Of a stretch of DNA of 64,000 nucleotides, positions 2,658-58,693 are shown piece by piece. Origin of the DNA: Kiritimatiellia bacterium (GTDB lineage Bacteria > Verrucomicrobiota > Kiritimatiellia > WLWN01); the NCBI GenBank assembly GCA_012103575.1, contig WLWN01000001.1:1676538-1740537 (forward strand), read 5' to 3'. How positions within the stretch are numbered: the first letter of the stretch is position 1; every line of letters starts with the position of its first letter. Made by a program: the position numbers and the translations under genes. The notes below the pieces were generated by a model, which had not been told where the DNA came from, searched no databases, and saw only the letters and a list, made by a program, of their open reading frames with translations.

Positions 2658-4941
2658 ATGAAACGAATACGAATAATCTTTAGTTTTGTTTGGATGATGG
2701 GAATGAGTACTTGGGTTGCGCAAGGGATAACCGGAACCGTTGCGAATACGAGTGACAGTGGTGTGGGGTCATTCCGAGATGCCATTCAGCAGATCAATGC
2801 GAGTAGTGATGCCTCTAATGTGACCAACTTCGACATTCCAGGGGCTACACCCCATGTCATTTTTCAAACCAGTATTGATGGATGGCCAGCGATTACAAAT
2901 CAAGTGCTTATTGATGGATATAGTGAACCGGATTATGCCAGATCTCCGGTGGTTGTGCTGCAATACCTTCCTGGTGCTGGCGAAGAAGGGTTGAAGATAC
3001 AAGGAAACGGCAGTATTGTGCAAGGGTTACAGATTGCTGACTTTGAAGATTCTTTTGTTTGTTGCGGGATTTCCCTTAATGCTGATAACTGTGTCGTAGA
3101 GGGATGTCATATTTTCAGCAACGGAACAGGTATCTCTGTTCTTGGCAATGTCAATGTTATAGGTGGCACGAACGGAAATATCGTTTCTGGAAATCCAAAT
3201 ACGGGTATAGAGCTAATTTCTAGTTCAAATGATGTTTTGGGGAACTATATTGGAACAGATATAACAGGGACTACTAGTGGGGGCAGCCAAGCCGCAGGTA
3301 TAGGATTATCTAGTCTATCATCGCATAACACCATTGGAGGAACGTCTGAGTGGATGCGCAATATTATTTCGGGGAATAGTATAGGTATTAGAGCATAGCA
3401 GGTTCTAACCATCTTGTCTGCGGTAATTACATCGGAACCGATAAAGATGGATTAACGGCGGTCCCGAACACCCAGGGAATAGGTATCTTTTCTCCTAGTC
3501 ATGTCATCGGACCAGAAGATGTGATCGGCGGAAATGTAGAAGAGGGAATTTTAATAAGTAACACGGGGCCTAATAATAAAATTATTGGCAATCAAATTGG
3601 AATTCACACAGTGACGGGGACTACCTTTTCGATTTCTAATCTAGGTAACGGAATCCAAATGGAAAGTAGTGGGAATGTTGTGGGCGGGTCTAACACCGTA
3701 GACCGAAATTTTATCGGTGGGAACATAGGCTTTGGAGTCTATATGCTGGAAAGCAACGCCTTCAATAATGCCGTGATCGGCAATTATATTGGAACGGGTA
3801 TATCTGAAGCGAAAGGCTTTGGACATAGCTTCGGAATACGGATTGTGTCCTCTGCAAATAATAATCAGATAGGGGGACCCAATGTTGCTGAAGGGAATCT
3901 AATCGTAGGCAGTACATCTGTAGGGGTGGCCATTACGAGCTCCAGTTCGAACAGGGTTACGGGAAATCGCATTGGGCGGTCATTGGCAGGAAACACGATT
4001 CCAAATCAAGTAGGTGTATTTATCGAAGGTTCGAGTAGCAACAATACGGTCGGCGGGACTAATTAGTGGAGAAGGGAATCTGATAGCCGGAAATGATACA
4101 GAGGGGGTCTTCATCCAAGGAAGTTCTTCTATTGACAATGGAGTGTTGGGAAATTTGATATATGACAATGATGGTGCTGGAATGGGCTCTGACTCAATCA
4201 GCTTGGCAAGCGGTGCGAATGAGTCACAAACGAATCCTGTTATTACGAGCGTCATTAATAACGGGTTTAATACGCTTGCAAGTGAGACATTGGATGCGAG
4301 CTCGCTGACGACCTATCGCTTGGAATTCTTTGCCAACAGTTCTCCTTGTTTGATTGGTACGGGAGAGGGCGAGAGGTTTCTTGGGACCGAAAATTTAGAT
4401 AGTTTTTTTGGTAACAGTTTTTCTGTAACTTTACCACATGTTCCTGAAGGCGGTTTTGTTTCCGCAACAGCAACCAAAATAAGTTCAGGCATTTTCTTTC
4501 CGGAGAGTCATAATGACACTTCAGAAATGTCACCTTGTGTGCCCGTAGTCTTATTTAGTGATGGCGATAACGACGGCATTCCAGATCAGTGGTAGAATGC
4601 TAGTGGCGCTAATTCAAGTCTCGATGATTCAGGGATTGATACAGATGGCGATTCATTTACTACCTATGAAGAATATGTATGGGATACAGATGCAGGTGAT
4701 GTGAATAGTTTTCCACAGATTACATCGGTTTCTAACGGACCTGGAAACGTCATGGTTTCTTTCCCTTCCTCTTCAACCCGTTTCTTCCAATTAGAAGCCA
4801 ATACAAGTCTAACCAATGCAAACGGGGTGGCATCCATTGACCATTCAAGCTGTGCAGGGAATTGACGGTACGCAGACGCTTTCTGACCCCGATACGGGTT
4901 CATTCGATCAACGGTTTCATCGGGTTCAGGGAGGGTTCTAG
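2658..4941 (+). pseudogene. Tandem paralog of the beta-helix repeat protein, carrying a signal peptide and multiple frameshifts plus an in-frame TAG
   Basis: Reading continuity passes through the ORFs 2658-3398, 3521-4066 and 4014-4595 and the downstream frame. Frameshifts sit near 3395 and 4060. At 4593-4595 the sequence reads DQW*, where copy 1 has DQWE. The C-terminus is colinear with copy 1. Confidence 0.6.
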
Positions 4942-13907: not shown

Positions 13908-15053
13908 GAAGACAAAAAAAAGAGAAAGACATGGAACAAATCAAGAGTAGTATTCATCCCCGAAAAGGCAAGCATTTGACACAGAAAGAACGGATCATGA
14001 TTGAAACAATGCTCAAAAACCGAGGACGTCCTTTGGAGATAGCCAGCTATCTGGGAAGGCATCGTCGAACCATAGAGCGCGAAATTAAACGTGGGGAGGT
14101 AGAGCATTTCGATACAGAGCTGCGAAAGAAGAAAGCATACAGCAGTGATCGAGCCCAGGAACTTCATGATCTAAATGCGACGGCCAAGGGACCTGAGCTT
14201 AAGCTTGGAAAGCATCATGAAACGGCCGTGTTTATCAGCGAGCACATTCTTGTTCACAAACGCTCACCCGATGTGGTTGCTCCTTTGCTTAAACAAGAGC
14301 AGAGACCTGCAGCGGTGAGTACAAAAACGCTGTATACCTATATTGACCAAGGTCTCATCCCGGGGGTGAGCAACGAGTCCCTATGGGAAAAACGAAAACG
14401 GATAAAACGAAAAAGACGTGCTATTAAGCGGGTTAAAAAGCAACATGCCCGAAGGACCAGTATCGAAAAACGACCTAAGACCGTAGAAAAACGCGAGGAA
14501 TCTGGGCACTGGGAATTGGATTTGATCGTCGGCGGAAAAGGAACTTCAAAACCGGTTTTAATGACGTTAGTAGAAAGAAAGACCCGAATGCTAAGGGTGA
14601 GAAAACTTTCGGATAAAACACAGGCATCGGTTCTGCAGGCCCTCAAAGCGATCGAAAGATCGATGGGAGTTGGCCCATTCAGATCGATGTTCAAGTCGAT
14701 TACAGCCGATAACGGGAGCGAGTTTCTCGACGTGGAGCAGATGGAACGTTCCGGATTTAGCAAAAAGAGACGTGTTAAACTCTATTATGCTCACCCGTAT
14801 TCTTCCTGGGAACGAGGCTCCAACGAAAATGCCAACCGTATGGTTTGTCGTTTCGTCGCCAAAGGAGACAACATCGGAAAATATACCATCGACCGTATTG
14901 GTGAGATTGAAAAATGGATTAACAACTATCCTCGCAAGATCCTAGAATACAAACCCGCACAGGAGTGTTTCGATTTGGAGATCGCCGCATGAACAGAAGC
15001 TCTCAGGTCCATTTTTTGCGGCATTTAATTTTACAATCCACCTTGGTGATTTG
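13908..15053 (+). mobile_element. IS30-family insertion sequence, type B, copy with a truncated left end
   Basis: Near-identical to 42078-43283 from 13908 onward. The right end (ggcatttaattttacaatccacc) is shared with the other copy, while the left terminal repeat present in that copy (ttgtaatattaaatgcc) is missing here. Confidence 0.7.
13931..14992 (+). CDS. IS30-family transposase, type B
   Basis: 353-aa ORF with an HTH, HWELD and DNGSEF DDE motifs. It is 98% identical to 42188-43234, apart from a 15-bp indel in a KRKR repeat. Confidence 0.85.
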   Translation: MEQIKSSIHPRKGKHLTQKERIMIETMLKNRGRPLEIASYLGRHRRTIEREIKRGEVEHFDTELRKKKAYSSDRAQELHDLNATAKGPELKLGKHHETAVFISEHILVHKRSPDVVAPLLKQEQRPAAVSTKTLYTYIDQGLIPGVSNESLWEKRKRIKRKRRAIKRVKKQHARRTSIEKRPKTVEKREESGHWELDLIVGGKGTSKPVLMTLVERKTRMLRVRKLSDKTQASVLQALKAIERSMGVGPFRSMFKSITADNGSEFLDVEQMERSGFSKKRRVKLYYAHPYSSWERGSNENANRMVCRFVAKGDNIGKYTIDRIGEIEKWINNYPRKILEYKPAQECFDLEIAA

Positions 15054-15136: not shown

Positions 15137-16196
15137 CTGCAGACTCAACTTACAAGTGCAAAACCGAAGCTGTCCATCATTTCTTTGGGCGTTCTATATT
15201 CTAAGCATTTTCTCGGTCTATTATTCAGTAACTCCACAGCCATCTCAACTGAGCGGAGCTGCGGGCAGCAAAGTCGGTTTTCTTCGGGAAAAACTGGCGA
15301 AGCAAACCATTCGTGTTTTCGTTGCTCCCTCTTTGCCAAGGGTTTCTCCCTTCAGCAAAGAAAATGGGGGTTGCTATTTTTTTCTGTAGTTTAGCATGGC
15401 TGGCAAACTCCATGCCATTATCTACAGTCACCGTTTTACAGGGGAGCCCTGAATCAGCGAACTGAGGTACGGAACGGTTGACCGATTCGGCATTGCATCG
15501 AGGTAAAAGATCGGCGATGAGATATCGAGTCGCTCGATCTACTAGAGTGACTACACAGGCCTCTTTTCTCGTTTGGCCCTGAATAGTGTCACCTTCCCAA
15601 TGGCCTGCCACCTTGCGACTTTCACCCTCTTCGGGGCGTTGGTCAATCATCGTTTGGTTGTGTATACGTGAATGGCTTTTCCGAGTCGCTCGTTTTTTCT
15701 TTCCGGGGCCACGCAGGTATTTTCGGTAGCCAGCCCCTCTTGGACTGTACAAGTAGCGGTAGATCGTCATTCGACTGATGGGAGGGTCACCTTCTAGCTT
15801 TCTTCGACCTTCAACCTGTTCTGGAGACCAATACTTCGCCAGGAGAGTCTCCACTTGTTCTTTGCTAGCTCCCATCACTTTTTGAGGCTTTCGAGCTAGC
15901 TGTAATCGGCTTTGAGCCAGGCCATTTGCGGGTCTTGGGTAATAGCGGCCACGGACTCGATTACGGCGAAATTCGCGCCAAATAGTCGAGGGGGATCGGC
16001 CCAGGTGACGGCCAATTTGAGATAAGCTATATTTTTCTTTTAGCATCTGGGCTATCACTTCTCGTTCATAACGGTTTAAATGTTCGTAGGTTCGTGGCAT
16101 TCTATGTTCTCCTTTGGGGAGGGTCAGATACCCAAAGAATGAACTATGCTGCGGACCTTTGCACTTGTATTGTTACTCTACCAAAAACGTAGTGTT
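15137..16196 (-). mobile_element. IS30-family insertion sequence, type A, copy 2
   Basis: The same terminal sequences as 104-1170 are present. The flanking DNA differs. Confidence 0.8.
15225..16100 (-). pseudogene. IS30-family transposase, type A, with a frameshifted C-terminus
   Basis: Identical to 113-1069 except that the last ~30 aa shift frame. The intact C-terminus (VELLNNRPRKCLEYRTPKEMMDSFGFALVS) is encoded by the overlapping ORF 15145-15339. Confidence 0.7.
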
Positions 16197-17300: not shown

Positions 17301-17380
17301 AGGTTCCTAGGCTATATCGGTCCCAAATAGTGCATAAAAGTCGCATCAAAAATATTCATGTCATTGAAGCATATATTGAC

Positions 17381-19037
17381 CTGAATCCGTTAGCTATCGC
17401 TTCGGAAGGCGTTTTGGGGCTCAAAAGCTGAAAATTTTTTCCTTGAGATGCTCGCTTTTGGGCGGATTGGGACCGGCAAGTATCACCCTGATGAATTTTT
17501 TGAGCGTACAGGTCAGATTCACTCTGATTTGGCCATTTTGGGGCGTAGGCCTCCTTGGGCAGTCGCCTTAGAGTATTGTTAAAGGTGCACGGAGGGCTAT
17601 GCGAAGGAATGGGCAATATCTTGTATCACTTCAAACCAGCGACAACGCTTGCCAAAGTGAAGTTCAATTCGTCCGGCGTGGCGGACCAATCGAACCGCGC
17701 AATAAACGATATTTTTGAGAACCGTTTTGATTCGCCAGCGCGGGATGTTGATTTTCTGCGGGGCAAGCCCAGCCCGTTTGATGACCTCTTGGCCAAGACC
17801 GCGCAATAGGTTGAAGGCCACCATGGCGCATAACAGAATAATCTTATTGGCACAGGGTCTCCCCGAAGGCAATCGCTCAACATCAAGATCGCTTTTGAGT
17901 TCACTGTGGTACTGCTCGCTGGGGCCATGTCCATGATAGAGATCTAGCACCGTCTTGGCACGACAAGAGAGGTTCGTCCACCAGGTGTTCACCTCAAGTT
18001 TAGGAACCAAAAGTTTCTGACCATCGATATCGATGGTGCGTTCAATCACTTCGAAGGCCACCGGGACACAAGGGTGGTTTTGGTCACCACCGGGATGGAA
18101 ATGATCGAAAAAGCCTGTGTAAACGTTCTTGCCTTCACGACTGTCTTGTTTGTCTCCAACTCGGCGTGCAAGGGCCAGCATTTGTTCAGGACATTCGCGG
18201 CGAGGATTTCGCTTTACGATAAAATAATGATCCCCAAAAGCGTCGAAGTTATCGGCCGCAGCGTTGCCACTATCAAGCCGAAGCAAACATTTTCCACCCA
18301 GGCCCAGGGTTTGGAGCGTTTCAACGCTGCGGGCAATAAACGCGGTCGTTCCCGACTGACAATGTTGTTTGCCGGGTCGAAGTTCGCACTCAAGCATGTG
18401 GCCTTGAGTGCCCACATAGGCAAATATCGGGGCGTAACCATCATGGCCCTTATAGGTGTAGGAAACGCCTTCTTTCGAAGAGCCTGAGTGATCCAAAGGG
18501 CTCACATCGATATCGACGGGAACAAGATCAAGCCCTTCGACATCTACCTAGCCAAAGGGGCCCGAGGAAAGAAGTTCGGTGTTGAGTTTGCGTAGCCCCA
18601 CATGGGTTCTGGCTGGGGGCAGGTCGTCGAAACGACGTCGGAACACCGGCTCAGAGGCTACTTTTTTAACTCCCCTTTTTAAGTCTAAAGGCATTCATAA
18701 AAATCTCATCACCCCGGTACAGGTCGATATCATTGAAATCGGTTCGACCGTTGCAAAGTAAGCCGATCTGGGTAAGGAGGATCTCCCGATCAGAGATCGC
18801 ATCGGAGCGGCGTGGTTGAAAATTGGAGGGAAGAATCCGTTGAGCATGATCCTCAAGCAGCAGGCCGCAAAGATGATTTCCGCTTGTGCTGTTGAGTTCG
18901 CTCTTGCCAGTCTTTATTTTATATTGTTTCATATACACACCTGTTGGGGTGGGGTTGTTTGTTTGAATACGGGTATGCTCCCCGCTTTAGCCCAACAGGT
19001 AATGAAAAATCGTCAGATTTTATCTGACGGATTCAGG
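17381..19037 (-). mobile_element. IS1380-family insertion sequence, copy 1
   Basis: The terminal inverted repeats are CCTGAATCCGTCAG and CTGACGGATTCAGG. The element is flanked by ATTGAC on both sides, a candidate target-site duplication. It is near-identical to 56075-57730. Confidence 0.75.
17597..18938 (-). pseudogene. IS1380-family transposase, frameshifted
   Basis: The N-terminal 90 aa are encoded by 18666-18938 and the C-terminal 302 aa by 17597-18505. The two parts lie in different frames. Confidence 0.7.
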
Positions 19038-19275: not shown

Positions 19276-19324
19276 ACAAAAAACATATAACCGTAAGGAA
19301 GTATAATAGGCTTTGTCAATACTC

Positions 19325-19360
19325 AGCCATTCTAATTTTGATTTCAAAATTAGAATGGCT
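19325..19360. repeat. Perfect 36-bp AT-rich hairpin (16-bp stem, 4-nt loop) placed directly upstream of the tRNA promoter region
   Basis: The sequence is AGCCATTCTAATTTTGATTTCAAAATTAGAATGGCT. It is followed (in the tRNA direction) by TTGACA about 35 bp before the tRNA 5' end. A related copy lies at 37683-37718. Confidence 0.6.
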
Positions 19361-19545
19361 CGTTCTTTGTTGTTGGTTCTTCTTTAATGGGAAGTTATTT
19401 TTTTAGTACAGATCAAATATGATCATGAACATATATAACCTACATTCAGCGATAAGGAACAGCCCGTCGTACCCATCCCTTGATCCGCCTAGCATTAGGT
19501 AAAGAATCTTGACCCACTAATAGATAACTAATAACTATTCCCAAC

Positions 19546-27611: not shown

Positions 27612-28271
27612 TTGAAGATATATCTTAAAAGAATACTTGCCCTGACTTTTTTTGTTTCTTTAACCACAAACGGTTTGTCTGCTGATGATGGCGATTGGCA
27701 AATATGGTTTGATCAAAGCATGGAGGGTAAGCTTTCTTCATCGTTAAAAACAAAGATGAATCAGCAATTAAAGTGGGGTGACCATGCGGGAGAACTGGTT
27801 GAATATAACGTTGAGCTTGGTTTAACGACAAAGCTGAGTAGTTGGTTTGACCTGGCCCTTTTCTATCGACAACAATATGAAAAAAAGGGAGCCGATTGGT
27901 TAGAAGAAAACCGTCCTCACCTAAACGGGACCATTAAATGGAAGTGGAACGACATCTCCTTTTCAGATCGTAGTCGTGTTGAACTTAGGATTAAAGAAAA
28001 TAAAAACGATATTGTACGGTATAGGAATAAAATAACCGTTACATGCCCAAAGACCTGGACAAAATTCAACATTCAAAAATATATCGCTGACGAAATTTTC
28101 ATCGATTCCGACAAAGGAGAGCTTAATCGAAACCGTTTGTATGTGGGGTTAAAAGCAAAGCCTCATGAACATCTTAAAGCCGATGTATATGGGTTGTGGC
28201 AGACTTCAGAAAAAAGCGACGAATGGACTGATGTTTACGTTGTGGGAGCAAAGTTAGGCATTGTTTTTTAG
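27612..28271 (+). CDS. Hypothetical secreted or outer-membrane protein (DUF2490-like)
   Basis: A signal peptide is followed by alternating amphipathic beta-strand-like segments. The start is a TTG. Confidence 0.4.
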   Translation: MKIYLKRILALTFFVSLTTNGLSADDGDWQIWFDQSMEGKLSSSLKTKMNQQLKWGDHAGELVEYNVELGLTTKLSSWFDLALFYRQQYEKKGADWLEENRPHLNGTIKWKWNDISFSDRSRVELRIKENKNDIVRYRNKITVTCPKTWTKFNIQKYIADEIFIDSDKGELNRNRLYVGLKAKPHEHLKADVYGLWQTSEKSDEWTDVYVVGAKLGIVF

Positions 28272-28446
28272 AAGAAGTTCAGGTTTTCTGAAAACGCTAC
28301 TTGGACCTTCGTCAAAAGCGCGAATTCAAGTAGTAAGTGCAATATTCTTTGAGATAAGAGAAATGAAAACTTTATTGAACATTTGGTTAGGAGTTTTGTA
28401 TCCACGGGTTTTTCTGGGTCTATTATTAGAGCGCTTCACGATTGAG

Positions 28447-29417
28447 GTGTCGCGATGTAGCACGAAGAAAACCAGCCGATTACCTCGTCGGGAGAAACCT
28501 CTTCGAACGCTTGTGTGAGCGCTTCAGATAGTTCCTGCGGGCTGCAAGGCTGCCCAACCGATTCTTTATCTTGCCCCACATTTTTTCAATGGGGTTGGAA
28601 TCGGGGCTGTAGGGTGGAAGGAATCTTACATGGGCCCCACATGACTCAATGAGTTTAATGACCTTGGGATTGTGATGGACGCGAAGATTGTCCATGATGA
28701 CGATGTCTTCAGGTGAAAGAGTCGGGAGAAAAACCCGGCGAATATATTCTCCAAAAACAGCCGTGTCTGTCGCCCCCTCCCTCTCCATGGCCGCTGTTGT
28801 TCCGTCCAGGCGGACTGAAAAAATCAAGGTGGTGGTACACCAATGTCCATGAGGCGTTTTGGCAAAAAGCCTGTTCCCGCCCAACGCCCGGCCCCGCAGA
28901 CAAGTCATATTCGTTTTCGCCCCGGATTCATCAATAAAGACAAGGCGACTTGGATCAAGTTTGGCTACCTCTTGGATCCACTGCTTTCTCAAGAGATTTA
29001 CATCCGCCCGGTCTTGCTCGCTGGCGTGAAGCGTTTCTTTTATACCGGCAGCCCAACCGATTCAACGCCCGCTGTACGGCCATGATCGACCCCTTCACGC
29101 CGCTCATGTTCTTGAGTTCTTCAAGCGTTGCATCGGGATGTTTGCCCCCCAGTTGAGCCAACGCCTTGAGCTGCTCGCTGTAGAGGGCCTGACGATGCCC
29201 ACGCGGTCGGGGAGCGGTCTGTCCGGTTTCGTTGAAACGAGAGAGCCCACGCTGAAACGTTCTAAGATCTACACGATAAGAAGATACGATATCGGCCTGG
29301 GAACCTTTGCCCATTTTGTAGGCATCTATCGCACGCCGCCGGATTTCTGCTGTTGCTATACTCATGTCATGGAGCATAGATCTTCTAAAGAGGCATTTCA
29401 ATCGTTAAATGCTCTAG
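28447..29417 (-). mobile_element. IS630/Tc1-family insertion sequence, copy 1 (degenerate)
   Basis: Ends TAGAGCGCTTCACGATTGAG and CAATCGTTAAATGCTCTAG form terminal inverted repeats next to TA. The transposase frames (28480-28992 and 28955-29401) are frameshifted and carry the DDE region HWCTTTLI...VRLDGT. A second copy lies at 45006-45949. Confidence 0.7.
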
Positions 29418-29926
29418 CTTTGCCTTGGCCATTGAGCTCACGAAATTTGTATATAGCAACAGTACTTTCTTTACTGCTCTCTTGGTATGCAAAAAATGCA
29501 GCTACGTATGGCGACCGAGTCCAATCTAGTAAAGGCGTCGGAAAACCATGATGCCGAATATAAACCATAAATCCGTAATTCTCAGGAGATGAAGGTTCAT
29601 CTCTATTCTCAAATACTGTTTCCCAGTTTTGATCTGTTAGCGATTCAAATGCCGCGATTGTCGGCTTAAGGATCTTTGTGTTGTATTCTATGATTGCAAG
29701 TAGTTCATCGTTTCGTCTTTCAAGTGTCGATTCAAGTTTCCACGAAGCACATTTATGGCCCCTAAAGAGGAGCTCGGAAAAATAGTAGTCCGCTTTGCTA
29801 AGGCGCTGCTCACCCTTTTGTAATTCCTTTTAGCCCAAATGGTTCGTGCAGAAAACCGCGTTTAACTGACGGATCCAGGATAGAGTTATCTGGAATTAAT
29901 TCGGTATATCTTTTTGACATAGACAT
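29398..29926 (-). pseudogene. Disrupted small gene encoding an FRG-motif protein, sitting in the cassette position upstream of intI
   Basis: There is a 144-codon open frame (29398-29829) with no start codon, reading ...YYFSELLFRGHKCASWKLESTLERR...YIRHHGFPTPLLDWTRSPYVAAFFAY.... An ATG-initiated 15-codon segment (29926 downward) lies in another frame. A partial 163-bp-family repeat sits between the two segments. The C-terminal codons run into the IS630 terminal repeat. Confidence 0.4.
29813..29879. repeat. Partial (one-arm) copy of the 163-bp palindromic repeat family
   Basis: ttttgtaattccttttagcccaaatggttcgtgcagaaaaccgcgtttaactgacggatccagg matches one arm of the elements at 44474, 51319 and 58518. 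The left boundary is approximate. Confidence 0.5.
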
Positions 29927-30005
29927 AATGATTATTCAGTCTATTTGACTTTAATAGAGAATATTAACGAATTTTAAGATTTTGTCAAATTGAAAAGAAC
30001 GATCT

Positions 30006-30993
30006 ATGAAGGCAACTTCAAAACCTAAAAAATTGCTTGATCAGGTTCGAGAAATCTTGCGAATCCATCATTATTCCATTCGAACGGAGCAGTCTTATGT
30101 AAAATGGGTCAAGGATTATATTTTTTTTAACGGGAAGAAACATCCTCAAGAAATGGGAATTCCTGAAGTCGAACGGTTTTTGACCCATCTTGCTGTCAAT
30201 AAAAATTTGGCTTCAGGAACCCAAAACTAGGCGTTAAATGCCCTTGTTTTCCTCTACAAAAAAGTGTTGAGAAAACCTTTGGGTGAAAAGATCAATGCGG
30301 TTCGAGCGCGGAAGAAACAGCGATTACCGGTTGTTCTAAGTAAAGAGGAAGTTAGCCGCCTTTTAAAGGCTATGTCTGGCGTCCATGAGCTTATGGCACA
30401 ATTGATGTATGGCTGTGGGCTTCGGGTTATGGAAGTATTACGTTTACGGGTACAGGAGCTAGATTTTGATCAGGGGCTGCTTCTGGTTCGTCGCGGTAAG
30501 GGCGATAAAGATCGCTCTACTATCTTGCTGCCCGAATTACATGTGCCTCTGAAGGATCACGTAATCTTTGTCAGAAAACTGTATGAACAAGATGTAGAGA
30601 ATGGTACTTGCAATGTATATCTTCCTCATGCCCTTGCACAAAAGTATCGAGGGGGGCCCCGCGCATGGAACTGGCAATATGTATTCGCGTCCAAAAGCCT
30701 CTCTGTTGACCCTCGAGCAGGTGTAAGGCGTCGTCACCATATGGATGAAAGCAGTATTCAAAAATCGGTGGTGCATGCTGCTTGTTTGGTATAGATCCCC
30801 CAAGAAAGTTACCTGTCAGACCTTACGCCATTCTTTTGCTACTCATCTACTCGAAGCAGGGACCAATATTTGCATGGTACAAGAGCTTTTGGGTCATAAA
30901 GATGTAAAAACAACACAGATCTATACTCATGTTATGAAAAGAGACTTTCATCAGATCAAAAGCCCGTTAAGTATGTTGCTTCAGGCTACCTGA
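30006..30993 (+). pseudogene. intI: Integron integrase (IntI-family tyrosine recombinase) with an in-frame TAG and frameshifts near the C-terminus
   Basis: N-terminus LLDQVREILRIHHYSIRTEQSYVKWVKDYIFF. The IntI-specific additional domain reads [55 protein letters not shown]. The catalytic C-terminus reads [41 protein letters not shown] at 30228-30230; frame changes around 30775-30800. Confidence 0.85.
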
Positions 30994-37386: not shown

Positions 37387-37682
37387 GGCAGTCGGGATTG
37401 TAAAATCTGGAGAAAGATAAAGCCCAAGGTCTTGAAGGCGAGGTGAATTACTTTAAGGCGCACCGCGACCCTATAGATTATCAGGCTGCTAAATGAGGGG
37501 GTTGCCCTAAAGGGTCTGGAGCCATGGAATCGACCTGTGCCCAATTCCAAACCCGATTCAAACGAACCGGTCAATTTTGGATACCTCCTAGAAAGCATCA
37601 CTTAATCGCTCTGGAATTAGCACGGCAGAATCATGACGGGGATGATATTTGGTAGTATGACCCAGATGCGCCTCAAATAACT

Positions 37683-37718
37683 AGCCGTTCTAATTTTGAT
37701 TTCAAATTTCAAATGGCT
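37683..37718. repeat. Imperfect copy of the AT-rich hairpin, again directly upstream of a tRNA promoter-like hexamer
   Basis: AGCCGTTCTAATTTTGATTTCAAATTTCAAATGGCT, with TTGACT at 37724-37729 and tRNA-Val starting at 37768. Confidence 0.45.
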
Positions 37719-37767
37719 GTGACTTGACTTCGTAAAGCAGACCGTTAAGCTACCCCTCTTATTTTTC

Positions 37768-41288: not shown

Positions 41289-41544
41289 GATATCCTCCGG
41301 GTTGTGGTTAGTTGTGGAGGCTACGGCCCGAGGTGGCTATACAATGGATTCTGTCCTGGGGGAGTCGCCTGGAGCGCTCGCCAATGAATGATGGCCAACT
41401 CAGACCCAAACTTCGTATGGGGCACAAGGCACCAATATCTTTAGGGGGGCTTAACTGCCGTAGCTTTCATGACATTTACACCTTACCGGACTCCAGTTTC
41501 AACCCTGAATGATCCAGCAAAGAGACCATGCTGGTGGCGAAACT

Positions 41545-42030
41545 TCGGGGAGACTCTGTGCCAATAAGATTATTCTGTTATGCGCCATGGTGGCCTTCAA
41601 CCTATTGCGCGGTCTTGGCCAAGAGGTCATCAAACGGGCTGGGCTTGCCCCGCAGAAAATCAACATCCCGCGCTGGCGAATCAAAACGGTTCTCAAAAAT
41701 ATCGTTTATTGCGCGGTTCGATTGGTCCGCCACGCCGGACGAATTGAACTTCACTTTGGCAAGCGTTGTCGCTGGTTTGAAGTGATACAAGATATTGCCC
41801 ATTCCTTCGCATAGCCCTCCGTGCACCTTTAACAATACTCTAAGGCGACTGCCCAAGGAGGCCTACGCCCCAAAATGGCCAAATCAGAGTGAATCTGACC
41901 TGTACGCTCAAAAAATTCATCAGGGTGATACTTGCCGGTCCGAATCCGCCCAAAAGCGAGCATCTCAAGGAAAAAATTTTCAACTTTTGAGCCCCAAAAC
42001 GCCTTCCGAAGCGATAGCTGACGGATTCAG
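41545..42030 (+). mobile_element. 5'-truncated IS1380-family copy (3' 490 bp only)
   Basis: Matches the last ~490 bp of 56075-57730, including the CTGACGGATTCAGG terminus. It encodes the C-terminal 101 aa of the transposase (ORF 41509-41814). Confidence 0.6.
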
Positions 42031-42077
42031 GATATTGCTATTTTTCAAAAAGTCAATTTTTTGTTTCAAAAAAATCT

Positions 42078-43283
42078 GAGAATTGTAATATTAAATGCCC
42101 AAAAGAAGATATTGTAAAACAGGAGTGTTCCATGCCGAAATCTTCTAGATTTAGAAACTCGACAGAAGACAAAAAAAGGAGAAAGACATGGAACAAATCA
42201 AGAGTAGTATTCATCCCCGAAAAGGCAAGCATTTGACACAGAAAGAACGGATCATGATTGAAACAATGCTCAAAAACCCAGGACGTCCTTTGGAGATAGC
42301 TAGCTATCTGGGAAGGCATCGTCGAACCATAGAGCGCGAAATTAGACGTGGAGAGGTAGAGCATTTCGATACAGAGCTGCGAAAGAAGAAAGCATACAGC
42401 AGTGATCGAGCCCAGGAACTTCATGATCTAAATGCGACGGCCAAGGGACCTGAGCTTAAGCTTGGAAAGCATCATGAAACGGCCGTGTTTATCAGCGAGC
42501 ACATTCTTGTTCACAAACGCTCACCCGATGTGGTTGCTCCTTTGCTTAAACAAGAGCAGAGACCTGCAGCGGTGAGTACAAAAACGCTGTATACCTATAT
42601 TGACCAAGGTCTCATCCCGGGGGTGAGCAACGAGTCCCTATGGGAAAAACGAAAAAGACGTGCTATTAAGCGGGTTAAAAAGCAACATGCCCGAAGGACC
42701 AGCATCGAAAAACGACCTAAGACCGTAGAAAAACGCGAGGAATCTGGGCACTGGGAATTGGATTTGATCGTCGGCGGAAAAGGAACTTCAAAACCGGTTT
42801 TAATGACGTTAGTAGAAAGAAAGACCCGAATGCTAAGGGTGAGAAAACTTTCGGATAAAACACAGGCATCGGTTCTGCAGGCCCTCAAAGCGATCGAAAG
42901 ATCGATGGGAGTTGGCCCATTCAGATCGATGTTCAAGTCGATTATAGCCGATAACGGGAGCGAGTTTCTCGACGTGGAGCAGATGGAACGTTCCGGATTT
43001 AGCAAAAAGAGACGTGTTAAACTCTATTATGCTCACCCGTATTCTTCCTGGGAACGAGGCTCCAACGAAAATGCCAACCGTATGGTTCGTCGTTTCGTCG
43101 CCAAAGGAGACAACATCAGAAAATATACCATCGACCGTATTGGTGAGATTGAAAAATGGATTAATAACTATCCTCGCAAGATCCTAGAATACAAACCCGC
43201 ACAGGAGTGTTTCGATTTGGAGATCGCCGCATGAACAGAAGCTCTCAGGTCCATTTTTTGCGGCATTTAATTTTACAATCCAC
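42078..43283 (+). mobile_element. IS30-family insertion sequence, type B, complete copy
   Basis: Left end ttgtaatattaaatgcc pairs with right end ggcatttaattttacaatccacc. It abuts the IS1380 fragment on the left and the recR start on the right. Confidence 0.75.
42188..43234 (+). CDS. IS30-family transposase, type B
   Basis: 348 aa; see 13931-14992. Confidence 0.85.
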   Translation: MEQIKSSIHPRKGKHLTQKERIMIETMLKNPGRPLEIASYLGRHRRTIEREIRRGEVEHFDTELRKKKAYSSDRAQELHDLNATAKGPELKLGKHHETAVFISEHILVHKRSPDVVAPLLKQEQRPAAVSTKTLYTYIDQGLIPGVSNESLWEKRKRRAIKRVKKQHARRTSIEKRPKTVEKREESGHWELDLIVGGKGTSKPVLMTLVERKTRMLRVRKLSDKTQASVLQALKAIERSMGVGPFRSMFKSIIADNGSEFLDVEQMERSGFSKKRRVKLYYAHPYSSWERGSNENANRMVRRFVAKGDNIRKYTIDRIGEIEKWINNYPRKILEYKPAQECFDLEIAA

Positions 43284-44473: not shown

Positions 44474-44636
44474 CCTGGATCCGTCAGTTAAACGTGGGAT
44501 TTCTGTGCGAATGGTTTGGAGGCAAAAGGTTGCAAAAAAACGCAGGCGCACCCGCTGGGTACGTCGAGGCTTTTTTGTAATTCCTTTTGGCCCAAATGGT
44601 TCGTGCAGAAAACCGCGTTTAACTGACGGATCCAGG
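44474..44636. repeat. 163-bp palindromic repeat element, copy A
   Basis: Terminal arms CCTGGATCCGTCAGTTAAACG and CGTTTAACTGACGGATCCAGG, with a largely self-complementary interior and a central palindrome. Copies lie at 51319-51481 and 58518-58680 (the latter inverted). Confidence 0.7.
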
Positions 44637-45005
44637 TTTTTGTGTACAAAAACTGAATCCGACCGTAGGGCTCGAAATAGAACCTACTCCAAACGCCCTC
44701 TGTCTGACTTTCATTGGCACAGAGGGCGAGAGGGTTCGTGGAGATTTTCTGTTGACCCCCTCCAACTTCTGAAATGAAACATGGCTTAAACATATTTCAT
44801 CCTTCTCTCAGATCAAGCGCCTTCGCCTAGGCGTAGGTTGTGTGATCCGCATAAATATTGGCAAGTTAGGAAGGTCCGGTTGAATTTGGTCTCTCGTAAT
44901 TATCGCACAAGTCCTTTAAAAGCGTGCGAAAACTGTGAACCGGTATGCCTTCATAAGCAGGCTTGAGATAGTTAATCAACTGGATCATCGTTTTCAATAA
45001 CTTAG

Positions 45006-45949
45006 AGCGCTTCACGATTGAGGTGTTGCGATGTAGCACGAAGAAAACCAGCCGATTACCTCGTCGGGAGAAACCTCTTCGAACGCTTGTGTGATCGCTT
45101 CAGATAGTTCCTGCTGACTGCGGGCTGCAAGGCTGCCCAACCGATTCTTTATCTTGCCCCACATTTTTTCAATGGGGTTGGAATCGGGGCTGTAGGGTGG
45201 AAGGAATCTTACATGGGCCCCACATGACTCAATGAGTTCAATGACCTTGGGATTGTGATGGACGCGAAGATTGTCCATGATGACGATATCTTCAGGTGAA
45301 AGAGTCGGGAGAAAAAGTTGTTCCGTCCAGGCGGACCGAAGAAATCAAGGTGGTGGTACACCAATGTCCATAAGGCGTTTTGGCAAAAAGCCTGTTCCCG
45401 CCCAACGCCCGGCCCCGCAGACGAGTCATATTCGTTTTCGCCCCGGATTCATCAATAAAGACAAGGCGACTTGGATCAAGTTTGGCCACCTCTTGGATCC
45501 ACTGCTTTCTCAAGAGATTTACATCCGCCCGGTCTTGCTCGCTGGCGTGAAGCGTTTCTTTTATACCGGGAAACCGATTCAACGCCCGCTGTACGGCCAT
45601 GATCGACCCCTTCACGCCGCTCATGTTCTTGAGTTTTTCAAGCGTTGCATCGGGATGTTTGCCCCCCAGTTGAGCCAACGCCTTGAGCTGCTTTCTGCTG
45701 TAGAGGGCCTGACGATGCCCACGCGGTCGAGGAGCGGTCTGTCCGGTTTCGTTGAAACGAGAGAGCCCACGCTGAAACGTTCTAAGATCTACACGATAAG
45801 AAGATGCGATATCGGCCTGGGAACCTTTGCCCATTTTGTAGGCATCTATCGCACGCCGCCGGATTTCTGCTGTTGCTATACTCATGTCATGAAGTATAGA
45901 TTTTCTAGCGAGGCATTTTCAATCGTTAAATGCTCTAGTACTCCTCCAA
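45006..45949 (-). mobile_element. IS630/Tc1-family insertion sequence, copy 2 (degenerate)
   Basis: Same terminal repeats as copy 1. Transposase fragments 45012-45278 and 45292-45885 lie in different frames. Confidence 0.7.
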
Positions 45950-46236
45950 AATTAAATTGGCGAGTTAGGGTCAAATTAGACTGTTCCCAATGACGACAGG
46001 GGCCTTCCACCATCACAGCAACGCTGTGTAGGCATAGAGCCTGGGGTTTCAACCCCAGGAAGACTTGTGCCCTGTAGGGGCACTGTCTATTCTTCAGGGC
46101 GCAATCAGATGTGTTCCTGTTTCATTCCTGGGGTTGAAACCCCAGGCTCTATGCCTTTGTCCCTTTGGGACAATCCATAGGGTCAGTAAATCATTCACCC
46201 CCAATTCGCCAATTTAATTTTGGAGGAGTACTAGTG
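45947..46236. repeat. Roughly 290-bp nested palindromic element (MITE-like) abutting the IS630 end
   Basis: 29-bp perfect outer inverted repeats CTAGTACTCCTCCAAAATTAAATTGGCGA. 29-bp inner inverted repeats GGCATAGAGCCTGGGGTTTCAACCCCAGG, each itself a hairpin. A central hairpin GTGCCCTGTAGGGGCAC. Confidence 0.6.
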
Positions 46237-46377
46237 CACGATAAAGTTTACGGTTAAGTGATGAAGAATGAATATATTCGAGTGGGAGCAGATATTTTAA
46301 TCAAACAGGTTCTAAGGTGAGGGTCTTTGGTCAGAAGTCAGGACCACCGTTTTTCTTTCACGCAGCTTGCTGCATGA

Positions 46378-51318: not shown

Positions 51319-51481
51319 CCTAGATCCGGCAGCTAAACGTGGGGTTTCTGTGCGAATGCCTTGGAGACAAAAGATTGCAAAAAAACGTAGGCGCACCCAC
51401 GGGGTGCGTCGAGGCTTTTCTCTAATTCCTTTTGGCCCAAATGATTCGTGCAGAAAACCGCGCTTAACCGCCGGATCTAGG
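51319..51481. repeat. 163-bp palindromic repeat element, copy C (diverged)
   Basis: Same architecture as copy A. The arms (CCTAGATCCGGCAGCTAAACG and its complement) carry paired compensatory changes relative to copy A. It fills the ybaB-mutL spacer. Confidence 0.7.
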
Positions 51482-56047: not shown

Positions 56048-56074
56048 GGTTTTTGATTGATGAAAGAATTAGAC

Positions 56075-57730
56075 CTGAATCCGTCAGATAAAATCTGATG
56101 ATTTTTCATTACCTGTTGGGCTAAAGCGGGGAGCATACCCGTATTCAAACAAACAACCCCACCCCAACAGGTGTGTATATGAAACAATATAAAATAAAGA
56201 CTGGCAAGGGCGAACTCAACAGCACAAGCGGAAATCATCTTTGCGACCTGCTGCTTGAGGATCATGCTCAACGGATTCTTCCCTCCAATTTTCAACCACG
56301 CCGCTCCGATGCGATCTCTGATCGGGAGATCCTCCTTACCCAGATCGGCTTACTTTGCAACGGTCGAACCGATTTCAATGATATCGACCTGTACCGGGGT
56401 GATGAGATTTTTATGAATGCCTTTGGACTTAAAAAGGGGAGTTAAAAAGGTAGCCTCTGAGCCGATGTTCCGACGTCGTTTCGACGACCTGCCCCCACCC
56501 AGAACCCATGTGGGGCTACGCAAACTCAACACCGAACTTCTTTCCTCGGGCCCCTTTGGCTAGGTAGATGTCGAAGGGCTTGATCTTGTTCCCGTCGATA
56601 TCGATGTGAGCCCTTTGGATCACTCAGGCTCTTCGAAAGAAGGCGTTTCCTACACCTAGAAGGGCCATGATGGTTACGCCCTGATATTTGCCTATGTGGG
56701 CACTCAAGGCCACATGCTTGAGTGCGAACTTCGACCCGGTAAACAACATTGTCAGTCGGGAACGACCGCGTTTATTGCCCGCAGCGTTGAAACGCTCCAA
56801 ACCCTGGGCCTGGGTGGAAAATGTTTGCTTCGGCTTGATAGTGGCAACGCTGCGGCCGATAACTTCGACGCTTTTGGGGATCATTATTTTATCGTAAAGC
56901 GAAATCCTCGCCGCGAATACCCTGAACAAATGCTGGCCCTTGCACGCCGAGTTGGAGACAAACAAGACAGTCGTGAAGGCAAGAACGTTTACACAGGCTT
57001 TTTCGGTCATTTCCATCCCGGTGGTGACCAAAACCGCCCTTGTGTCCCGGTGGCCTTCGAAGTGATTGAACGCACTATCGATATCGATGGTCAGAAACTT
57101 CTGGTTCCTAAACTTGAGGTGAACACCTGGTGGACGAACCTCTCTTGTCGTGCCAAGACGGTGCTAGATCTCTATCATGGACATGGCCCCAGCGAGCAGT
57201 ACCACAGTGAACTCAAAAGCGATCTTGATGTTGAGCGATTGCCTTCGGGGAGACTCTGTGCCAATAAGATTATTCTGTTATGCGCCATGGTGGCCTTCAA
57301 CCTATTGCGCGGTCTTGGCCAAGAGGTCATCAAACGGGCTGGGCTTGCCCCGCAGAAAATCAACATCCCGCGCTGGCGAATCAAAACGGTTCTCAAAAAT
57401 ATCGTTTATTGCGCGGTTCGATTGGTCCGCCACGCCGGACGAATTGAACTTCACTTTGGCAAGCGTTGTCGCTGGTTTGAAGTGATACAAGATATTGCCC
57501 ATTCCTTCGCATAGCCCTCCGTGCACCTTTAACAATACTCTAAGGCGACTGCCCAAGGAGGCTTACGCCCCAAAATGGTCAAATCAGAGTGAATCTGACC
57601 TGTACGCTCAAAAAATTCATCAGGGTGATACTTGCCGGTCCCAATCCGCCCAAAAGCGAGCATCTCAAGGAAAAAATTTTCAACTTTTGAGCCCCAAAAC
57701 GCCTTCCGAAGCGATAGCTGACGGATTCAG
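56075..57730 (+). mobile_element. IS1380-family insertion sequence, copy 2
   Basis: Termini CCTGAATCCGTCAG and CTGACGGATTCAG, flanked by ATTAGA on both sides. The transposase is split between 56173-56445 and 56696-57514, in different frames. Confidence 0.75.
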
Positions 57731-58517: not shown

Positions 58518-58680
58518 TCCTGGATCCGTCAGTTAAACGCGGTTTTCTGCACGAACCATTTGGGCCAAAAGGAATTACAAAAAAGCCTCGACGCACCCAG
58601 CGGGTGCGCCTGCATTTTTTTGCAACCTTTTGCCTCCAAAGCATTCGCACAGAAATCCCACGTTTAACTGACGGATCCAG
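58518..58680. repeat. 163-bp palindromic repeat element, copy B (inverted relative to copy A)
   Basis: Near-identical to copy A in reverse-complement orientation. The central palindrome reads CGCACCCAGCGGGTGCG. Confidence 0.7.
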
Positions 58681-58693
58681 GATAGTGTCAAAG

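Follow-up and report, generated by a model that had tools for sequence, protein, structure and literature searches.

On the minus strand, divergent from the integron integrase gene intI of a Kiritimatiellia bacterium, lies an open frame with an FRG-type motif, preceded by a fragment of a palindromic repeat and by a short ATG-initiated segment in another frame. We asked whether this arrangement is what is left of an integron cassette, what protein such a cassette would have encoded and which events broke it up. The stretch of DNA analysed, 64,000 nucleotides in all (the window), places the locus between queG/DUF2490 and dnaE, a chromosomal setting, and is crowded with IS30, IS630 and IS1380 copies as well as MITEs. 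The reading that we favor, with a probability of roughly 85%, is that the locus is a twice-disrupted pseudogene of an FRG integron cassette in a decayed chromosomal integron. The features on which this reading draws are collected in Table 1.

Table 1. Features of the FRG-intI locus, related mobile elements in the window and selected metagenomic loci (TSD, target site duplication; positions are those of the window unless a locus is named).
Feature	Position	Strand	Evidence or remark
IS30-like transposase C-terminal remnant (NNRPRKTRGYKTPNQMF)	28326..28426	-	blastp against the window's two IS30 transposases
IS630-family element, TA flanks	28427..29416	-	NCBIfam transpos_IS630, Pfam DDE_3, second copy
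FRG-domain core of the pseudogene	29417..29815	-	homolog residues ~22-152
Residual 64-bp MITE arm in the FRG gene	29816..29879	.	98% identical to 44573-44636
Native 5´ end of the FRG gene, ATG + 15 codons (MSMSKRYTELIPDNS)	29881..29926	-	translation, homolog alignment
Spacer between the intI and FRG start codons, 79 bp	29927..30005	.	
Integron integrase pseudogene intI	30006..30993	+	TIGR02249 on three fragments
Full 163-bp MITE	44474..44636	.	TSD TTTTT
Full 163-bp MITE, 88% identical	51319..51481	.	TSD ATAAT
Full 163-bp MITE, inverted orientation	58519..58681	.	TSD ATAGT
IS1380-family element, ends CCTGAATCCGT..., TSD ATTGA	17380..19037	.	transpos_IS1380, E = 1.4e-63 (NCBIfam)
Second IS1380-family copy	56074-57730		
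UG19/Schlafen array (metagenomic)	L001 5904-6923; L002 1198-2217 and 2727-3878		
IntI relatives with N-terminal extension (metagenomic)	L007 65-1360; L011 433-1728; L020 2893-4188		

The open frame contains the core of an FRG-domain gene

The minus-strand frame running from 29829 to 29398 is open over 144 codons and includes SELLFRGHKCASWKLESTLERR, which the earlier note had read as an FRG-domain signature. A profile search of the translated frame bore this out: PF08867 (FRG) matched with 76.2 bits against a cut-off of 25 (E = 4e-21), over model positions 2-92 of 94. The (F/Y)RG motif of the domain is present as LLFRGH, whose F, R, G and H do not vary across the homolog alignment, and the remnant resembles the FRG family and the PADLOC family PDC-S15 in that both LLFRGH and the HHG.PTPLLDWT.SPY block are conserved.

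Intact homologs, which the earlier note had proposed to look for, do exist. With the rejoined sequence as query, 70 FRG proteins were matched, and the twelve best (P0001-P0012) are 51-64% identical to it and 257-258 aa in length, except for P0006 (222 aa). The size of the family was surveyed by an exhaustive phmmer search with the intact homolog P0001, which returned 7,497 cluster representatives at a threshold of E ≤ 1e-3, of which 516 also passed E ≤ 1e-30; since nearly all of these 516 representatives are 255-285 aa long, the long form is the norm. The window sequence aligns only to residues ~1-152 of homologs with an intact length of 258 aa. The window copy keeps ~59% of the protein, is frameshifted and has IS sequence as its tail.

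The FRG gene diverges from a disrupted integrase gene

The neighbor of the FRG gene is identified as an integron integrase gene by TIGR02249, which matches three intI fragments with 72.4, 207.5 and 96.8 bits (model positions 1-65, 79-250 and 256-315, respectively). The FRG ATG at 29926 (minus strand) and the intI ATG at 30006 (plus strand) are divergent and 79 bp apart, in agreement with the earlier placement of the frame opposite intI, where cassettes sit. When metagenomic IntI relatives were aligned to the window by tblastn, two lesions became visible in intI. At 30228-30230 an in-frame TAG takes the place of the Gln found in homologs (TQN*ALNAL), and near 30790-30802 the frame changes; because of this one nonsense codon and one frameshift, intI is dead. 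With its integrase decayed in this way, the integron can neither express nor move its cassette. The nearest metagenomic IntI relatives, at ~46% identity, are ~430 aa long and carry a ~105-aa N-terminal extension (Table 1) that is missing from both the window intI and the TIGR02249 model.

The spacer between the two start codons holds a sole candidate core, GTTAATA on the minus strand (29968-29962), which matches GTTRRRY at six of seven positions and lies 36 bp upstream of the FRG ATG, with the intI start 38 bp away on its other side. This candidate overlaps a promoter-like -10 box, part of a sigma-70-like TTGACA-16-TAATAT sequence (10/12; minus strand, 29988-29961) that points into the FRG gene and could be a Pc-like cassette promoter; the promoter scan yielded four sites where 2.3 were expected from shuffles, which is not significant. 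The best metagenomic IntI relatives are at most 47% identical (52% for partial matches), too distant for a comparison of attI DNA, and GTTAATA accordingly stands here as a candidate for the exact attI junction. Folding of the spacer gave no hairpin of the attC kind (z = -0.2 and -0.6), no attC was found in the window and the other unannotated stretches of the window fold unlike attC.

The closest homologs are flanked by attC-type sites

We examined the genomic contexts of six of the closest homologs (51-64% identity), which represent seven distinct loci; the loci with described cores are L001/2, L003, L004/5, L049/50, L051 and L052/53. All seven loci show attC-type flanks around the homolog. 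In every close locus, a GTTRRRY-type core is found 22-35 bp upstream of the homolog start, and the homolog stop codon overlaps RYCTAAC, after which comes an imperfect palindrome with GTTRRRY at its end. Two of these attC-type sites were folded and gave long bulged hairpins (z = -4.3 and -6.4), and an alignment of nine homolog attCs with MAFFT/RNAalifold recovered only the R''/R' pairing. The earlier note had taken the FRG gene for integron cassette cargo and had raised the question of whether its homologs sit in cassettes elsewhere. For the closest homologs they do, at 7/7 distinct loci, and the flanks support the cargo idea.

Two home-made attC scanners, which combined core motifs with hairpin energy, were rejected because they were insensitive and unspecific. 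In the homolog loci, the strict version reported nothing but a single 157-nt span, which was spurious, and the relaxed version recovered two of the ~9 attCs seen by eye and gave matches in the window that, MITEs aside, were not above those in shuffles.

Canonical attC cores are absent from three loci of more distant FRG homologs (L054, L055 and L058; 43-47% identity), so the cassette association appears, from these sequences, to hold for the close clade only. The distant FRG gene in L055, which encodes 217 aa, adjoins HicB- and MqsA-like genes and has the motif CTCTTAATCAGCGGGTT on both sides (~3800-4000 and ~4660-4700); the motif is also present in L056 and L057, and at L055 it could represent either a repeat of another kind or a non-canonical site of recombination.

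Given attC-type flanks at every locus of the closest homologs and a gene that stands, divergent from intI and 79 bp away, in the position and orientation of a first cassette, we regard it as improbable that the FRG gene was never a cassette here and is instead an unremarkable accessory gene, possibly derived from a defence island, beside a cassette-less In0-type integron. Such a history would agree with a sigma-70-like promoter directly upstream of the gene, with the distant homologs that lack canonical cores and with a window that contains neither an attC nor a clear attI. The absence of an attC says nothing, because an IS630 element has replaced the 3´ end of the FRG gene, where the site would be expected. 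As a former cassette, the FRG gene would be the first, and now the sole remaining, cassette beside the chromosomal intI.

Among the cassettes that neighbor the homologs are ones for a DRT-class reverse transcriptase (RT_UG19, E = 2e-118), DUF4238 and SLFN/AlbA_2 proteins. In one metagenomic array, covered by L001 and L002 (Table 1), the FRG cassette is followed by a 339-aa UG19 reverse transcriptase and then by a Schlafen/AlbA_2 protein, and this array looks like a run of defence-type cassettes.

An arm of an IS1380-type MITE interrupts the reading frame

The ATG at 29926 lies in a different frame from the FRG core and opens an ORF of 38 codons (29926-29810), of which 15 are native and the rest are read-through of the repeat arm; the translation thus agrees with the earlier description of a 15-codon ATG segment in another frame. 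These 15 codons align with the homolog N-termini at the (D/E)LIPD motif. Without the 64-bp arm, the spacing from IPD to LLFRGH is exactly 17 residues, a value shared by 10 of the 12 homologs with sequence in this region. It had also been proposed that deleting 29813-29879 would bring the two segments into the same frame, and this holds with either arm length, 67 and 64 bp both being 1 mod 3.

The similarity of the segment itself to the homologs was assessed in two ways. An ungapped PSSM of the N-terminal segment in fixed register ranked it 233rd among 71,183 window 14-mers (p ~ 0.003), and a profile HMM of the homologs' N-terminal 35 columns, searched against the six-frame peptides of the window, did not pick it out. 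Two Trp residues conserved in the homolog N-termini are not kept in the ATG segment. Because of the HMM result and a PSSM p-value of only this size, the probable identity of the segment as the FRG N-terminus leans mainly on position, frame and spacing, with moderate support from sequence similarity.

One might suppose from the lost Trp residues, the HMM result and the PSSM value, together with an arm that is half an element without a TSD, that 29881-29926 is not the FRG N-terminus at all and that the arm marks a junction of unrelated DNA with a 5´-truncated FRG gene. We hold this to be very unlikely, as a simple interruption accounts for the order and strand of the pieces, for the restored frame (a 1-in-3 chance) and for an IPD-to-FRG spacing that matches the homologs exactly, the ELIPD motif is found at the expected place, and the segment is next to intI, where the 5´ end of a cassette belongs.

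The interruption itself was delimited by aligning the copies of the repeat. The earlier note was right that a repeat arm is present, but its length by identity is 64 bp rather than 67 bp, and it is 98% identical to the right arms of two full copies (44474-44636 and 58519-58681). Its 21-nt terminus occurs six times in the window, compared with 0 expected occurrences. The full copies have the termini CCTGGATCCGTCAGTTAAAC and perfect 5-bp TSDs (3/3), and the copy at 44474-44636 folds into a near-perfect hairpin (z = -11.3), whereas the 64-bp arm alone shows no significant hairpin (z = +0.31). The ends of the two IS1380 elements, CCTGAATCCGTCAGATAAAA, share 17 of 20 terminal bases with the MITE terminus, and their TSD is likewise 5 bp. 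Because of the shared termini and the 5-bp TSDs, we classify the 163-bp repeat, by sequence criteria, as a MITE of the IS1380 type, and the IS1380 element is the likely source of the transposase that moves it. In addition to the two full IS1380 copies listed in Table 1, the window has one partial copy (41543-42031).

The full copies are like IS1380-derived MITEs in being 163 bp long, non-coding and near-palindromic, with a 5-bp TSD and 17/20 shared terminal bases. In contrast, the copy in the FRG gene consists of a lone 64-bp arm; it has a single genuine terminus, lacks a TSD and has cost the gene no visible sequence. The outer terminus of this arm, ...GGATCCAGG, abuts 29880 and reads ...CCAGG|ATAGA at the junction, and is a genuine end of the element; the opposite end falls within the element, shortly after the T-run at its center. 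ATAGA is not duplicated at the arm, no loss of gene sequence is visible there and the inner junction shows no microhomology.

The simplest reading is that a full element was inserted and that its other arm was later deleted. Insertion followed by deletion should leave a copy of the TSD or remove gene sequence, and neither is visible at the FRG arm; the deletion may also have taken a few codons of the variable linker. On this reading, the 163-bp MITE, moved by the resident IS1380-family transposase, would have inserted after codon 15, and the 64-bp arm left behind would shift the frame, such that the native start would now give a 38-aa peptide. Among IS1380-type elements, a solo MITE arm of this kind, genuine at one terminus yet lacking a target duplication, is a minor mechanistic curiosity.

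We also considered, and rejected, an attC-like nature of the MITE, whose cores, GTTAAAC...GTTTAAC, stand in the reverse of the attC order. Among the matches listed for the MITE, contig JAALKB010000137.1 (L006 1-52; MH1_Bin6, a MAG labelled Gammaproteobacteria) ends in a MITE arm that is identical to the window MITE at 52/52 bases. Either this contig is mis-binned or the MITE is common to Gammaproteobacteria-labelled and Kiritimatiellia DNA.

An IS630-family element has replaced the 3´ end of the gene

The ends of the IS630-family element, whose transposase is broken up between the ORFs 28955-29401 and 28480-28992, were set by aligning 28250-29480 against the region of a second copy (44880-46000). 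One end falls at 29416/29417, inside the 144-codon frame. Native FRG sequence stops after ...ELNGQGK, and the last five codons and the stop codon of the frame (RAFND*, 29415-29398) are IS630 sequence. Consistent with this boundary, the FRG match ended at 29416-29419 in tblastn searches with P0001, P0006 and P0009. The interval 29398-29926 assigned earlier does contain the FRG gene, but ~20 bp of it are IS630 and the 3´ end of the gene is cut off.

What is missing amounts to 106 codons, the 3´ 41% of the gene, with the near-invariant residues R173 and Q177 (P0001 numbering) and several predicted strands. No C-terminal FRG fragment was found by tblastn anywhere in the 64 kb, including beside the second IS630 copy. 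Because the IS630 element took the 3´ 41%, excision of the repeat arm would not yield an intact gene.

We considered whether the far side of the IS630 element holds the FRG 3´ half, and this was ruled out, the sequence there being an IS30-like transposase remnant (43% identity over 30 aa, E = 1e-6 in blastp against a two-sequence set); an NCBIfam search of this remnant gave no match, the piece being too short. Beyond the IS630 element, the order is the IS30-like remnant and then a convergent DUF2490 gene. Because these stand there, the 3´ 106 codons of the FRG gene, the attC and any further cassettes appear to have been deleted or rearranged away. In the sequence of events that we infer, an IS630-family element would have inserted at a TA after codon ~152, the 106 codons, the attC and the further cassettes would have been lost, and a rearrangement would have put the IS30 remnant where the 3´ part of the FRG gene had been.

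It is scarcely credible that the remnant is still expressed as a shorter functional FRG protein, whether through initiation within the frame or, for example, through a frameshift over the arm, for although the 144-codon frame is free of stops and retains the Pfam domain nearly whole (2-92/94), it has no ATG, GTG or TTG before 29568, which leaves at most 56 codons, its tail is IS-encoded, and the lost 41% of the conserved length includes R173, Q177 and several predicted strands in a family whose 516 close representatives nearly all measure 255-285 aa.

The second IS630 copy (45002-45937) has internal deletions of 62 bp and smaller and abuts a separate nested palindromic element of ~308 bp (45931-46238, inverted repeats I7 and I8), which is possibly another MITE.

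The intact protein is predicted to be an ART-fold effector

PADLOC lists PDC-S15 as a candidate defence system made up of one gene. The remnant matches its model (PDLC04937) with E = 3.7e-25 over model positions 33-142 of 254, which is not full-length, whereas the intact homolog P0001 matches it over positions 16-243 (E = 1.5e-39). Intact relatives match PDC-S15 along their entire length, and the window copy is truncated and ends in IS sequence. In the literature that names PDC-S15, the family is listed as a prediction only. Frg has been assigned to the ART superfamily and described as a likely NADase (PMC9503650). An AF2 model of the intact homolog had as its best structural neighbors the Rhs toxin TreX (8s2m), heat-labile enterotoxin, cholera toxin A1 and pertussis S1, a weak resemblance to ADP-ribosyltransferase toxins.

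We predict that the intact protein would be an infection-triggered effector that consumes NAD+ or ADP-ribosylates a target. The cassette in the window would once have encoded such a protein of ~258 aa, a member of the PDC-S15 family with a predicted ART fold and NAD+-consuming antiviral activity.

Relation to known defence cassettes in integrons

Integrons are established as reservoirs of defence genes, according to the studies of Kieffer, Darracq and Getz (all 2025) as cited in a recent preprint (bioRxiv 10.64898/2026.03.17.712381). The full text of that preprint does not mention FRG, and our literature search found no link between the FRG domain and integrons. Compared with the defence cassettes described in integrons (bioRxiv 10.1101/2024.07.02.601719), the homolog ORFs are alike in being small, promoterless-looking and attC-bounded, and the window copy is alike in occupying the first-cassette position at intI. 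It is unlike them in that both the cassette and the integrase are dead and the attC is lost.

A parallel for the disruption itself may be drawn with the IS-bearing Sucellos cassette of the chromosomal integron of V. cholerae (bioRxiv 10.64898/2026.03.17.712381). In both cases, a mobile element inside a defence-type cassette immobilised or inactivated the cassette; the window differs in having taken two separate hits, the MITE arm and the IS630 element, and in having lost the 3´ half and the attC.

As a tentative proposal, to which we give rather less than even odds, the ~258-aa FRG clade could be dedicated integron-cassette cargo, a single-gene, ART-fold, NAD+-consuming anti-phage effector that travels with RT_UG19, DUF4238 and SLFN cassettes. 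If so, the clade would add a candidate family to the integron defence repertoire, and the window copy would be a member discarded as the integron decayed. Integron defence reservoirs are already known, and we found no mention of this cassette-borne FRG clade in the integron-defence work. As a lead it is modest, a candidate defence gene with a predicted ART/NADase fold.

The remnant in the window matters little in itself, being ordinary genome decay in an IS- and MITE-rich chromosome. The locus does illustrate the death of a chromosomal integron, in which integrase, cassette and attC are all lost or broken. Other repeats contribute to the crowding of the window. IS30-family transposases of two types account for at least four ORFs (113-1069, 13931-14992, 15225-16100 and 42188-43234), and a 55-nt palindromic repeat, AGCCATTCTAATTTTGATTTCAAAATTAGAATGGCT, occurs twice, at 19315-19369 and 37674-37728, with ~80% identity between the two copies (D17, I6).
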